Part shown: in pieces, positions 19 to 8,684 of the stretch
How positions within the stretch are numbered: the stretch's first letter is position 1
Layout of the letters: every line of letters begins with the position of its first letter
From: Chthoniobacteraceae bacterium
Lineage (GTDB): Bacteria > Verrucomicrobiota > Verrucomicrobiia > Chthoniobacterales > Chthoniobacteraceae
Direction: 5' to 3'
DNA length: 12,428 nucleotides
Assembly: GCA_031409655.1 (NCBI GenBank)
Contig: JANNXQ010000277.1
Location: forward strand, 1 to 12,428
Program-made: the position numbers and the translations under genes
The notes under the pieces: generated by a model
Told to the model about the DNA's origin: nothing
The model's input: the letters and a program-made list of their open reading frames with translations, nothing else
Databases searched by the model: none

Positions 19-177
19 TCGGTGGATGGCGCGCTCCGCCGCGCCATGGGAAAACCAACCGCGCGGAGCGCGTCAATCTTCCGCAAGAGCGAAGCGGCTG
101 AGGCGCACAGGCGGAGAAAATGGGCGGCGGCGCCGCGGAGCATTCGGCATGGCGCAGCGGAGTGCGCCATCCACCGA
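19..177. repeat. REP doublet (REPIN/BIME-like unit) copy 1
   Basis: TCGGTGGATGGCGCGCTCCGCCGCGCCATG at 19-48 (GTGG + hairpin ATGGCGCG-ctccgc-CGCGCCAT), inverted copy at 148-177, 99-nt spacer. Part of a 179-bp tandem unit (position 1 matches position 180), which may continue left of the window. Confidence 0.92.
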
Positions 178-197
178 AATGCCAAGGCATCCTGGCC

Positions 198-356
198 TCG
201 GTGGATGGCGCGCTCCGCCGCGCCATGGGAAAACCAACCGCGCGCAGCGCGCCAATCTTCCGCGAGAGCGAAGCGGCTGAGGCGCACAAGCGGAGAAAAT
301 GGGCGGCGGCGCTGCGGAGCATTCGCCATGGCGCGGCGGAGCGCGCCATCCACCGA
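198..356. repeat. REP doublet copy 2
   Basis: REP at 198-227 and inverted REP at 327-356; 99-nt spacer differs from copy 1 at 6 positions by manual count. Confidence 0.92.
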
Positions 357-416
357 CAGCGCAGCATTGCTGGAAATCGCTTGGCGGCGGCGAAGGCGGA
401 AAGCAACCTCCGGCGC

Positions 417-935
417 ATGAGCGATGACACGCCGACACCACCGAGCGTGTACCACGGCTTTGGCGGACGCCTCTTTCACGATGTACCAGCCTGGGTGCGC
501 GACGACGCGATCTTTCACATCCGCGTGCGCATCGAGCCGACGAGCCCGCGGCTCACGGAATCTCCGTCACTGGCGGCGGCCTTGCTCGAGAGCGTGAAGC
601 TTTACCACGAGCGCGGACGCTGGTGGGTGCATCTCTTCATGCTCATGCCGGATCACTGGCACGCCTTGCTCAGCTTCGGCCCGCAGTCGTCGATGGGCCG
701 GATCATCGGCGAATGGAAGAAGTATCAAGCACGGCATCGCGGGATCGTGTGGCAGGAGGGCTTCTTCGATCACCGTCTGCGCAACCATCTCGCGGAACTC
801 GACGACAAGTACGCCTACATCCGCCGCAATCCCCAGGCGTCGGGCCTGTGCGCTCCCGAGGCGGATTGGCCGTGGCAATGGAGCGCCAGCGACCCCGCGC
901 CCGACACCCGCCCGGAAAACCCCTCGCGCTGGTAA
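417..935 (+). CDS. rayT: REP-associated tyrosine transposase (RAYT/TnpA-REP, HUH Y1 family), 172 aa
   Basis: HUH motif MPDHWH, WQEGFFDHRLR, catalytic Tyr motif YIRRNP and C-terminal DWPW, with REP doublets on both sides. ATG at 417 chosen because the longer ORF (120-935) runs through the repeats. Confidence 0.92.
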   Translation: MSDDTPTPPSVYHGFGGRLFHDVPAWVRDDAIFHIRVRIEPTSPRLTESPSLAAALLESVKLYHERGRWWVHLFMLMPDHWHALLSFGPQSSMGRIIGEWKKYQARHRGIVWQEGFFDHRLRNHLAELDDKYAYIRRNPQASGLCAPEADWPWQWSASDPAPDTRPENPSRW

Positions 936-2970: not shown

Positions 2971-3924
2971 TCATGGCGCGGTATTCAGGACGCTTACGGC
3001 GCGGGAGATGGCTTCGACGCTCGCGGTGGGTGCGCCGAAGTTGAAGGCGGTGACTTCGCGCGAATAGACCTCGGGGGTACCGGAAGGGACGCTTTGGCCA
3101 TTGAAGACGCTGAGCGCGCGGGAGATGGCTTCGACTTGCGCGGGCGGGCTGCCGAAATTGAAGACAGTCACGGCGCGACCGATGGCCTCGGTGGTCGCGA
3201 GCGGGGAGCCGAAGTTGAAGGCGCTGACTTCCCGTGAGTAGACCTCGGGCGGGAAGGTGGGGATGCTTTGGCCATTGAAGATGGAGATCGTGCGCGAGAT
3301 GGCCTCGCCGCGCGCGATGGCAGTGCCAAAATTAAAAACCGTGACCTCACGCGTGATCGCTTCCTTCAGCGGGACGATGCCGCGTTTGCGCCGGTAGTAG
3401 TCGAGATTGTTTTCGCCGGTGAGACGGTCGGGCTCGGGGCTGAGCTGGAAGGCATCGTTCGGGTTGAGCGGATTTAGGTAGCCGTGCTGGAGTTCCCAGA
3501 TGTCGTCGAGGAAGTCATTGTCCTGATCCTCCGGCGCCGAGACGCTGATGCCGCGGGCGCGGAAGAAGCCGCTGCGCTCGCTGGCGGCGGGGGTGTATCC
3601 AAAGGTGGGGCCAGCATTGCCCAGTGCCATCATCACGTAGCTCCACGGGACCTTGAGGTCTGCAGAATGCTGAAAGCCGAAGTAGAGGGCGGGATTTGGC
3701 TGGAGGGTGATGCGATATTCGGCACCGACCTTGGAGAACTCAGCGGTCAAACCTTGCCCGAAACTCGAAGGTCCCAGACTAAGATAGCCCGCCAACGCAA
3801 CGACGGTCGCAAGTGTCTTGGTTCGGAAAAGGCGCGCGATTCTTGACGAGACGTGTGGGGAAGCTTTTTCCACAGCTTTTTTGGGCTGTCGTGCCGCGTC
3901 ATTCTCGGGAGTTTCCGTTTTCAC
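2971..3924 (-). CDS. Secreted hypothetical protein with TSP3-like Ca-binding motif and seven C-terminal ~19-20 aa repeats
   Basis: Hydrophobic signal-like stretch TLATVVALAGYLSLGPSSFG, DQDNDFLDDIWE motif (3493-3528), repeats EAISRxVSVFN. Start uncertain: GTG at 3924 preferred over TTG at 3978. Confidence 0.85.
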   Translation of the reverse strand: MKTETPENDAARQPKKAVEKASPHVSSRIARLFRTKTLATVVALAGYLSLGPSSFGQGLTAEFSKVGAEYRITLQPNPALYFGFQHSADLKVPWSYVMMALGNAGPTFGYTPAASERSGFFRARGISVSAPEDQDNDFLDDIWELQHGYLNPLNPNDAFQLSPEPDRLTGENNLDYYRRKRGIVPLKEAITREVTVFNFGTAIARGEAISRTISIFNGQSIPTFPPEVYSREVSAFNFGSPLATTEAIGRAVTVFNFGSPPAQVEAISRALSVFNGQSVPSGTPEVYSREVTAFNFGAPTASVEAISRAVSVLNTAP

Positions 3925-4168
3925 GTTGGTTTCCGCTGCCGTGTTTGACGGATACGGAATTTTCCGCGGCGATGGCAAGCGTAATATCGCAGTGACATTA
4001 CCTTTCCCGGCGCTTATGACATTTCCGAGACAGGGACAAGACTGAAGGCGGCAGAAAGCAGTTGGCGGGAGATAGGGGAGAGCGGTTTCCGTGGGGATCG
4101 TCCTCGGGATGGGGGGGCGGGCACGTCTCAGGCGGCGCTACCGGCTCAAGGCCGAAACAGAGCCGCCC

Positions 4169-4558
4169 CTACTTATTGGCTTTGAGTGGCTTGCGCTGGA
4201 TCAGGCGGGCTTGAGAAGGGTTCAGCGGGCGGGTTTCCGAGGGCACGGAAAGATTTCCTGATATCAGGGAGAGGCTTCCTGATATGGGGAAAACGTTTCC
4301 TGAAATAAGGAAACGGCTTTCTGATATTGGGAAATGGTTTCCCGATATCAGGAACTGACTTCCTGAGATTGGAAAATGGCTTCGTGAAATAAGGAAGCGG
4401 TTTTCTGATCTACGTAAGCGGCATCCTTCTCTTCGGAAGTGGGTTCCCGGTTTAAGGAAATGGCTTCCTGATATCAGGAAGGGCTTTTGTGACGTACGGA
4501 ATGGGTTCCCTAATCCAAGGACGTGGCTCGCTGAAATCAGGAAACGGCTCCCCGACAT
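4169..4558 (-). CDS. Possible heptad-repeat ORF (F[LP]ISG[SN]H)n, probably a by-product of the 21-bp array
   Basis: Open from ATG at 4558 for 129 aa, but almost entirely inside the tandem array; no recognisable domain. Confidence 0.2.
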   Translation of the reverse strand: MSGSRFLISASHVLGLGNPFRTSQKPFLISGSHFLKPGTHFRREGCRLRRSENRFLISRSHFPISGSQFLISGNHFPISESRFLISGNVFPISGSLSLISGNLSVPSETRPLNPSQARLIQRKPLKANK

Positions 4559-4590
4559 TGGGAAGGAGTTTCGTGATAATCGGGAGGGAT
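4234..4590. repeat. Tandem array of ~17 degenerate 21-bp units, consensus TTCCTGATATCAGGAAAYGGC
   Basis: Units start at 4234, 4255, 4276, 4297, 4318, 4339, 4360, 4381, 4402, 4423, 4444, 4465, 4486, 4507, 4528, 4549, 4570 with no indels; perfect 18-bp palindrome CTTCCTGATATCAGGAAG at 4464-4481. Confidence 0.9.
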
Positions 4591-4685
4591 TTGAGTGGAT
4601 ATGGTAAACGCGGATGTTTTAAGGGAGGGGCTTTGGAGGATGCGTAGTAGGGATGGGTGAATGGGGGTCTTTGGACTTCCTGATC

Positions 4686-4801
4686 TCGGTGGATGGCGCA
4701 CTCCGCTGCGCCATGAGTTATCTTTGCCGGAGGCCTCATCCAAGGGAGAGGCGCTGCCGCGCGAGCAATGTCATGGCACAGCGGAGTCCGCCATCCACCG
4801 A
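4686..4801. repeat. REP doublet copy 4 (same REP family, unrelated 56-nt spacer)
   Basis: TCGGTGGATGGCGCACTCCGCTGCGCCATG at 4686-4715 and a degenerate inverted copy at 4772-4801. Confidence 0.88.
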
Positions 4802-4951
4802 GCTTTCCCTTCGCTCCGTTTCCGGGGTGTTGCTATTGGGGCAACGAGGAAAATGGGAACGCTCGTTACTTTTTTGGCCGGGGTGGCCCTTGGCTTGCTT
4901 TTCCTGGGGTGATCCAATTGACGCTCATAATTAAATCTAACTAACTCATAT

Positions 4952-5572
4952 ATGATCATTAAACCTTCCATCTCCTTCCTCAATGAAGATCCTGACGCGG
5001 ACTTACTGGCTCGCATCACGACGATCGTGATTGCGCTCACGGGTAACACCAGCTTTCCAGAGCCCGCACCGACGCTGGCGGTGGTAACTGCGGCCAATGA
5101 CGCCTTTGGCAAGGCGGTCGCGGAAGCGGCGGGTGGCGGGGTGGCGCTGACGGCGGTGAAGAATGATCGGCGGGCGGCCCTCGTGGCGCTGGTGCGGGAG
5201 TTGGCGAGTTATGTACAGGTGGCATGTAAGGAAGATCTGGCGGTCTTGCTCACGAGTGGCTTTCCGCACCAGAAGCCGGAGCGTCAGCCGATCGGCGAAC
5301 TGCCTCCTCCAGCCAATCTCACGCTGAAGCTGGGTACGCGCAGTGGGCAACTGGTGACGAAGGCAGAGCCGGTCTCGGGGGCCTCAATCTATAATTGGCG
5401 CCTGACGACTTCCGCGGCGCCGGAAAATCCGGTGCAGACCCGGCAGACGACGGCGGCACGGCATACTTTCTCCGGGCTGACTCCGGGGGTGATCTATAAT
5501 GTGGAGGTGAATGCGGTGGGTGCGGCAGGGCCGAGTAATTGGGCCGGGCCGGCGAAGCAGATGGTGGTGTAG
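4952..5572 (+). CDS. Hypothetical protein with N-terminal helical domain and C-terminal fibronectin type III domain, 206 aa
   Basis: FN3 signature HTFSGLTPGVIYNVEVNAVGAAGPSNW preceded by PPPANL; Ala/Leu-rich amphipathic N-terminal half; no signal peptide; AT-rich leader (4917-4951) and downstream terminator. Confidence 0.88.
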   Translation: MIIKPSISFLNEDPDADLLARITTIVIALTGNTSFPEPAPTLAVVTAANDAFGKAVAEAAGGGVALTAVKNDRRAALVALVRELASYVQVACKEDLAVLLTSGFPHQKPERQPIGELPPPANLTLKLGTRSGQLVTKAEPVSGASIYNWRLTTSAAPENPVQTRQTTAARHTFSGLTPGVIYNVEVNAVGAAGPSNWAGPAKQMVV

Positions 5573-5599
5573 GGGGCGGGGGGACGACGCAGATTTACG

Positions 5600-5640
5600 A
5601 AAGGCGCGCTGGCCGTGAGGCCGGTGCGTTTTTCTTTTTC
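5600..5640 (+). terminator. Rho-independent terminator of the FN3 gene
   Basis: Stem GCGCGCTGGCC (5604-5614), GTGA loop, GGCCGGTGCGT (5619-5629, with G-U pairs), followed by a T-rich tail. Confidence 0.75.
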
Positions 5641-5687: not shown

Positions 5688-5824
5688 TTTGACGTTTGGT
5701 GTTTGGCGTTTGAAGTTTGGCGTTCATCCCTCCCCGGGCAGCTCGTTGGCAGCGGGTGCCTCGCCTCACCTCCAGCGCCGCTCCAGACGGTTCAACGCCA
5801 AACTTCAAACGCTAAACGCCAAAC
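5688..5824. repeat. Inverted repeat built from 7-mer subunits (TTTGGCG)n ... (CGCCAAA)n
   Basis: 5694-5724 and 5794-5824 are 31-nt reverse complements with two differences, both G-U compatible. Confidence 0.85.
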
Positions 5825-7034: not shown

Positions 7035-7488
7035 AAACTCGAAGCTCGTAATCCGAAGGGACTTTGAAAAGAGTGGAAGCAGGGAGCCAGGAAGCTAGGG
7101 ATGGAGGAGGAGGCCGCAGGGTCTTTCCGAGTTTCCTTTCTTTCTGTTTCAACCTGAGATCAGCGGCTGAGCCGTGGCTCCGGACTTTTTTCCCCAGTAT
7201 CCAAGCTCGCAACCAGACCGCTCCGCACAGCGGCCAAGCTTCCTGAAATGGAGACAGGATTCACAGGATTTAGAGGATTCCAGGATTTCGCCAGATGGAA
7301 TCCGGTAAATCCTGCCAATCCTGATCATCCTGTCCAACTCTCCCACCATTTGGCGGCCAACCTGAGAGGCCACTTCCAAACGAGCGGCGCAATGTCTCTC
7401 GTGAAAATCGCCAGCAAGACGCAGATCTCCGGGGGCGTTTCCCTCCCTGGCCCACTCACCTTTTGAATTTGTTTCGAGCTTCGAGTTT
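7035..7488. repeat. Outer inverted repeat pair bracketing the intergenic region
   Basis: AAACTCGAAGCTCG (7035-7048) and its exact reverse complement CGAGCTTCGAGTTT (7475-7488), embedded in 7-mer-periodic sequence. Confidence 0.7.
7253..7334. repeat. Inverted repeat built from 9-mer subunits (ACAGGATT)x4 ... (AATCCTG)x4
   Basis: GACAGGATT CACAGGATT TAGAGGATT CCAGGATT (7253-7287) facing AATCCGGTA AATCCTGCC AATCCTGAT CATCCTGTC (7299-7334). Confidence 0.82.
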
Positions 7489-8541: not shown

Positions 8542-8684
8542 CAGCCTGTGGTAAAAACCGGATTGCGCAGTCTCCTTCTTCTTCTCCATCTCCTTCTTCT
8601 TCCCAAATGACAGAGAAGGAGAAGGAGATGAAGAAGGAGAAGAAGACGCGGACCTTGAGATGGACAGGTATTTTCAACAGGCTG
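8542..8684. mobile_element. Putative 143-bp MITE with CTAA target-site duplication
   Basis: Termini CAGCCTGTGGTAAAA (8542-8556) and TTTTCAACAGGCTG (8671-8684), flanked by CTAA at 8538-8541 and 8685-8688; internal pyrimidine/purine hairpin at 8570-8647. Confidence 0.6.

Follow-up and report, generated by a model that had tools for sequence, protein, structure and literature searches.

A phased 21-bp palindromic array upstream of a fibronectin type III gene in Chthoniobacteraceae: candidate binding sites for the encoded protein

We find that a stand-alone gene in a Chthoniobacteraceae bacterium, encoding a helical domain fused to a fibronectin type III (FN3) domain, is preceded by an array of degenerate 21-bp palindromic units, and that most homologous genes are preceded by arrays of the same kind. 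The link between array and gene is confirmed. Judging from sequence comparison, the array is probably a row of duplex-DNA binding sites for the product of the next gene downstream, a protein whose copies would coat about 350 bp. The window (the whole stretch of DNA analysed, 12,428 nucleotides) corresponds to contig C277 in a genome of 6.85 Mb (G000); its features are listed in Table 1.

Table 1. Features of the array-gene module in the window (positions counted from the first letter of the window)
Feature	Position	Strand	Basis or remark
21-bp palindromic array, 17 degenerate units, non-coding	4234..4590	.	18-bp dyad + 3-bp linker each
REP/REPIN-type hairpin insertion, not part of the module	4685..4802	.	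arm same as 17-356, 952-1112
Predicted sigma-54 -24/-12 promoter	4883..4899	+	GG 4885-4886, GC 4897-4898, 10 bases between
AT-rich leader of the gene	4900..4951	+	sequence
ORF, 206 aa	4952..5572	+	starts 361 bp past array end
Helical N-domain, residues 1-112	4952..5287	+	AlphaFold model, conservation
Codon of residue 12 (Glu here)	4985..4987	+	position co-varying with half-site base 5
Fibronectin type III domain, C-terminal, + stop codon	5288..5572	+	Pfam, structure search
Intrinsic-terminator-like hairpin, T run	5599..5640	+	hairpin itself 5599-5634

Results

The array and its surroundings in the window

A preliminary description made from the letters of the window alone had counted about 17 head-to-tail 21-bp units without indels, placed the gene about 360 bp downstream, and credited it with its own AT-rich leader and terminator. 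All of these observations stood: 17 units are in register, the measured distance is 361 bp, and a leader and a terminator-like hairpin flank the gene. The description had overlooked the sigma-54 motif and the REP-type insertion, both of which lie between array and gene. Identity within the array is 0.72 at lag 21/42, a measure that reached at least 0.55 in only 2/1000 random 1-kb windows of the same genome, and TRF returned periods of 21, 42 and 84 with scores of 107, 165 and 212. The units are palindromic, as had been described (symmetry 0.57 compared to 0.40 in column shuffles, p = 0.003), but the proposed layout of a 16-bp palindrome and a 5-bp linker fits less well than an 18-bp dyad with a 3-bp linker. 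The description's view that this is not a CRISPR array agrees with the head-to-tail arrangement of the units, which have no Rfam match at gathering level, and with the lack of a PADLOC match for the protein.

Elsewhere in the genome, the window's array unit occurs only on two contigs. On C128 (G000:C128:381-634) it lies upstream of a paralogue that has an array and a sigma-54-like motif and is frameshifted and truncated, continuing on C86; on C124 (G000:C124:19190-19564) the array copy is gene-less, directly downstream of a small gene that we take from its sequence to be XRE-like HTH. A further paralogue, on C233, has no array. Scanning the genome at lag 21/42 returned 32 stretches, many unrelated in sequence. 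At G000:C66:69954-70431, a near-perfect 21-bp array is followed by a strong sigma-54 motif without a recognisable gene, possibly a gene-less leader.

Other repeats are found nearby. The arm of the REP-type insertion between array and gene has 40 matches on 20 contigs of the genome, and a Y1 transposase gene (IS200-like, REP-associated type) at window positions 120-935 has REP-type hairpins on either side (17-356 and 952-1112). Divergent from the array, a 335-aa ORF without a Pfam match (2971-3978, minus strand) ends in repeated units of about 18 residues, with a 58-aa duplication and a 174-bp repeat at 2983-3330. More intergenic inverted repeats lie at 2747-2903, 5694-5824, 7255-7323 and 8570-8653, some of them made of 7-bp or 3/6-bp units.

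Arrays accompany the gene in homologous loci

The preliminary description had suggested looking for 21-bp arrays beside homologous genes, and such arrays proved to be enriched upstream. After loci were oriented, five duplicates dropped and 1 kb of upstream sequence required, arrays (at least 0.55 identity at lag 21 or 42) were present upstream in 58/87 homologous loci, compared to 0/92 downstream and 2/1000 random windows. Close homologues come from records titled Verrucomicrobiota, many of them Chthoniobacterales. With metagenome loci included, and at least 700 bp of upstream sequence, 95/124 loci have an array and 29/124 have no detectable one. The loci are related to one another, most being Verrucomicrobiota assembled from metagenomes, and are not independent. 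None of the 87 loci has a period of 15, 18, 20, 24 or 27 bp, and the single 22/44-bp array belongs to a distant homologue (L012, 959-1178); periodicity of 10-11, 7 or 14 bp was looked for in the homologous loci and not found. Arrays contain 5-25 units, with a median of 14, in the 63 loci that have both an array and a promoter motif.

Co-variation of unit sequence with protein clade, the second check that had been suggested, was also seen: array similarity tracks protein identity (rho 0.55, 89 loci), a correlation that could arise from co-inheritance alone. The 13 pairs of arrays from the same genome show no likeness beyond the level expected from protein identity (mean z -0.7).

The gene family is patchy and multi-copy, being present in 17/61 relatives. 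Clusters at 50% identity that match it at E up to 1e-10 number 1124, some of them through FN3 alone. Among the recurrent flanking families of 157 loci there are no conserved neighbour genes, activators and NTPases included. Seven array-linked genes (L222 and L223, on C187 and C301 of G000, and L010, L017, L024, L025 and L027) carry a short Trp-Asp-rich N-terminal extension, and a small collagen-like gene lies 3' of related loci L011, L012, L023, L027, L028 and L040.

This distribution bears on whether gene and array form a selfish or mobile cassette, in which the array would be a recombination or insertion end and its period a by-product of mobility. Patchy multi-copy spread, the broken paralogues and gene-less array of the window genome, the lack of conserved neighbours, and five loci (L050, L054, L098, L099 and L109) in which the module adjoins what we take from its sequence to be an integron-type integrase gene are all in keeping with this idea. 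On the other hand, domain searches found no nuclease or recombinase domain in the protein, searches of plasmid and phage collections returned no match to the gene family, viral contigs match the FN3 part only, and arrays occur on one side of the gene only. We think a cassette of this kind quite unlikely as the explanation of the array, and it would in any case be compatible with an array of protein-binding sites, the two not being exclusive.

Symmetry of the units fits possible sites on duplex DNA

Two further readings concern a peptide encoded by the array and a single-stranded role. In the first, one strand of the array would specify a heptad-repeat peptide (coiled coil or beta-roll), in the manner of a PARCEL with a short period. 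In the window, a minus-strand frame is open through the array (4169-4558) with a sub-threshold Pfam match to a beta-roll, and pN/pS for the window's array by itself is 0.63-0.65 in three of the frames. Of 95 arrays, 53 passed a symmetry and length filter for a coding test, and 44 of these 53 have some open frame compared to 31 in column shuffles. Against a coding role, pN/pS relative to the array consensus is 0.98-1.34 across the six frames when the 53 arrays are pooled (1.03 in open frames, 52 arrays), and the most open single frame is open in at most 21/53 arrays, or at most 24/70 in a larger set. Stops fall below the column-shuffle level in all six frames, but TGA is not depleted (ratio 1.0), the deficit of TAG and TAA is common to non-stop triplets such as ACT and GTG, and some consensus units contain a stop. 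We reject the peptide, which is highly improbable in the face of this lack of codon-level selection.

The second reading gives the array a single-stranded role, as RNA or DNA with units that pair among themselves and are bound by the protein in that form; a structured repeat RNA had also been among the alternatives of the preliminary description. The sense strand folds well (z -7.9), but so does the antisense strand (z -7.1), because any array of palindromes would. Mirror positions hold G-T more often than A-C (469 vs 390, and in 23 vs 12 arrays), a small bias, and a protein-RNA code could also produce the residue-12 link described below. The symmetry itself argues otherwise. Compared to column permutations, 52/70 arrays are palindromic, and in the 37 with the common axis, mirror pairs flip among C-G, G-C and T-A between loci, the central pair included, so that the dyad is continuous through the centre and leaves no loop. 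Within one unit, the left and right halves show no mutual compensation (1611 vs 1599 +/- 18), and no fixed pairing register was found, the gain over chance staying within 0.3 of 18 pairs at every unit offset. On these grounds we rejected hairpins, whether formed inside one unit or by adjacent units. There is no Rfam family at gathering level, and the predicted promoter sits downstream of the array. The structured RNA is not supported, and a single-stranded role appears unlikely to us. The dyad pattern would instead fit repeated two-fold sites on duplex DNA.

A predicted sigma-54 promoter follows many arrays

A sigma-54 motif lies no more than 250 bp from the start codon in 97/145 homologues, compared to 6/145 on the antisense strand, 10/125 downstream, 1-9 in shuffles and 7-9/145 with other spacers; the search used the standard -24/-12 consensus. 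Both array and motif are present in 63 loci, the array alone in 32, the motif alone in 18 and neither in 11. From array to promoter the median distance is 129 bp, and the helical phase is not fixed (R 0.08). Because the predicted promoter lies 3' of the array, the array would be outside the gene's mRNA and at the position of an enhancer.

That position raises the possibility that the array serves as an upstream activating sequence, an enhancer of unusual length, for a sigma-54 activator whose gene lies elsewhere, and that the downstream protein is not its reader. Sigma-54 promoters need a remote activator (PMC7408454), the motif recurs at the distance given above, and the window genome encodes RpoN and has 10 strong activator-domain matches. 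Several results speak against an enhancer. Arrays of one genome are no more alike than protein identity predicts, although a genome has several activators; 32/95 array loci have no motif within 250 bp, four of them showing a sigma-70-type match in its place; and two related families, described below, keep their arrays with the motif at only 1/20 and 2/18 loci. An enhancer would also account for neither the period doubling nor the residue-12 link. We judge it unlikely, and the array is not tied to sigma-54. A supposition that array-bearing genomes without the sigma-54 motif also lack RpoN was wrong, as RpoN was found in 5/5 of them.

The encoded protein

The preliminary reading of the protein as a helical N-domain fused to FN3 was borne out by a Pfam fn3 match at residues 119-200 and by an AlphaFold model (pLDDT 96) with N-domain helices at 9-12, 15-29, 42-59, 64-92 and 96-101. 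Its claim that there is no export signal also held, by eye, the N-terminus having no signal peptide. Conserved N-domain residues are K4, K70, R74, R82, K108 and R111, and the net charge of the domain is near zero (median +1 across homologues). The best matches in a structure search with the whole model were all to FN3 (residues 113-206), with nothing else returned, and a single-sequence model of the N-domain was poor (pLDDT 44). Searches of Pfam, NCBIfam and PDB sequences returned no family match for the N-domain, the PDB-sequence profile search giving nothing below E 0.35. No RHH, HTH or winged-helix match appeared in these family and PDB sequence searches, and FN3 filled the fold searches. 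Among the Pfam matches listed, 0/102 members match DUF6261 (PF19775); hhalign to one member gave E 0.44, the two DUF6261 loci found are both without an array, and any link to this family would be remote.

Array period in two further families

Twenty of the 32 lag-21/42 stretches in the window genome were inspected, and three precede genes of two other unnamed families, B and C. Family B (260 aa) has 21/42-bp arrays upstream at 17/20 loci and downstream at 0/20, with palindromic arrays in 15/19 and the sigma-54 motif at 1/20 loci. Family C (235 aa, no FN3 seen) has 42-bp arrays at 16/18 loci and a 41-bp array at one more, with 1/18 downstream and the motif at 2/18. The 42-mers of family C are palindromic in 11/15 cases and their lag-21 identity of 0.16-0.34 is at background level. 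By hhalign, family C aligns twice to the helical module of the window protein, at residues 17-107 (E 4.6e-3, probability 8%) and 117-186 (E 3.9e-4, probability 36%), a weak homology that is weaker still for family B (E 0.033). Family C thus appears to hold two copies of the helical module. A one-module protein with a 21-bp dyad and a two-module protein with a 42-bp dyad would each come to 10.5 bp per module. Exceptions to this rule are one-module loci with 42-dominated arrays (L011, L023, L020 and L029) and the 22/44-bp array of L012.

Residue 12 co-varies with a base of the half-site

In 77 of the 89 loci, those whose proteins share 40% identity or more with that of the window, the best predictors of array similarity beyond overall identity are residues 12, 8, 11 and 19, at the top of 171 columns. 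These residues are located at the short first helix, beside the nearly invariant K4. Where residue 12 is lysine or arginine, G prevails over C at half-site base 5 in 21/22 loci, compared to 10/55 loci with other residues (Fisher 2e-10), and the association is seen in each half of the unit taken alone, with G at base 5 and C at base 14 of the unit. Reading of guanine by lysine and arginine is well established. The window, with Glu12 and C at base 5 (0.87), has the pattern expected for a non-basic residue.

On a FastTree tree computed with residues 1-22 left out, the trait switches 15 times, and independent pairs ran 7.9 the same way and 0 the opposite way (median p 0.008; 0.03-0.06 at other base thresholds). 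The link was found post hoc, ranking 1st of 10,368 tests and 2nd of 15,300, and is the sole one in the top 30 of the 15,300 with a pair-test p < 0.05. Other residue-base links, such as residue 155 or 180 with base 8, failed the independent-pair test.

Sixty-four further array loci, less 12 near-duplicates, formed a held-out set of 52, mostly from distant subfamilies with poorly phased arrays. Unfiltered, G exceeded C in 13/20 loci with Lys or Arg and in 14/32 others (p 0.16). The close homologues among them gave 3/4 vs 5/9, and a well-phased subset, chosen by a filter set afterwards, 5/5 vs 3/9 (p 0.03), two of the five being 88% identical to discovery rows. With the held-out outcome included, we take the residue-12 link as suggestive rather than proven.

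Discussion

Tandem repeats of 20-21 nt with constant size and variable sequence have been described in bacteria by Subirana and Messeguer (2021, PMC8161180), who suggest that an unknown protein needs the constant repeat size to polymerise on DNA. Arrays of the window's type likewise have a fixed 21-nt unit within that size class, free sequence, several sequence families per genome, no coding function and related forms of 40-42 nt. The repeats of that study are from Bacillus and are scattered, its main text uses neither "palindrome" nor "upstream", and no partner gene appears in the parts available. The resemblance between the two is one of description, and they may share an origin or a reader. 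Among published kinds, this unexplained repeat class is the closest to the arrays described here. The available text of PMC6749651 contains no mention of 21-nt units, promoters or fibronectin.

Several known systems share part of the arrangement. Tandem repeats also lie upstream of a gene in omega-parS of pSM19035, ParR-parC and TubR-tubC, and the direct or inverted repeats of type Ib, II and III partition arrays are coated by a small encoded protein that also represses its own promoter (PMC5016525). Unlike partition systems, the present module is chromosomal, multi-copy and without a match in the plasmid collection, with an FN3 domain and a predicted sigma-54 promoter, and no partition NTPase (Walker, actin-like or tubulin-like) was found in the ten window ORFs scanned, both neighbours included, or in the families that recur beside 157 loci. 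In sigma-54 enhancers, of which the NtrC sites of glnA are an example, palindromes stand roughly 40-250 bp ahead of the -24/-12 promoter (PMC7408454), and a GG-N10-GC motif with exact spacing is found downstream of the present array. The sites of glnA are few compared to the 5-25 found here, and in contrast to an enhancer, array sequence follows the downstream protein rather than the genome and related families keep arrays without the promoter. PARCELs, too, are dyad-symmetric tandem repeats that give amphipathic patterns on translation, but they are 25-residue units inside expressed ORFs (PMC2996958), whereas the present arrays are intergenic, built of 21-bp units and without codon-level selection. 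The module would belong to the kind in which a protein is paired with its own array, and this gene-array pair appears to be undescribed in the literature searched, which took in few subscription journals and no supplements and contained no description of it.

We propose that a helical module reads one half-site per helical turn of 10.5 bp, so that a one-module protein would bind as a two-fold dimer per 21 bp and a two-module protein would do so per 42 bp. Contacts to the bases would come from the N-terminal arm and the short helix (K4 and residues 8-12). Array and protein may drift together, locus by locus, which would explain why unit length is fixed and sequence is free. The preliminary description had offered the array as a loading site on which the neighbouring protein polymerises; that the period follows module number and that residue 12 co-varies with a base are indirectly in its favour, though the held-out test of the second was not significant unfiltered (p 0.16). 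Other observations weigh against the proposal: the near-zero net charge of the N-domain, the loci without a detectable array, the gene-less array and the array-less paralogue of this genome, the exceptions in period, the weak homology of families B and C to the module, and the lack of a fixed helical phase between array and promoter. The purpose is the weakest step of the proposal: most likely, the coat would act back cooperatively on the promoter of its own gene by occupying the stretch where a sigma-54 activator has to dock or form a loop, and the FN3 domains would point away from the DNA to pack together or meet a partner. Alternatively, the role may be structural or selfish.

More tentatively, and with a good deal of doubt, we speculate that these proteins could represent a class of modular, programmable DNA-coating proteins with one module per DNA turn, an N-terminal residue-base code, private arrays and an FN3-studded filament, and that such proteins could be the reader of the 20-21/42-nt repeats of many bacteria. 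In the published account, bacterial repeats of fixed length and free sequence are a puzzle without a named reader (PMC8161180). A small protein family, a ruler rule that allots 10.5 bp to each module and one prediction linking a residue to a base are now to hand, making the question testable. If the proposal is true, it would bring to light a DNA-binding module that has no counterpart among Pfam, NCBIfam or PDB sequences, give bacterial FN3 a function in the cytoplasm, and supply many protein-array pairs that are orthogonal by nature.
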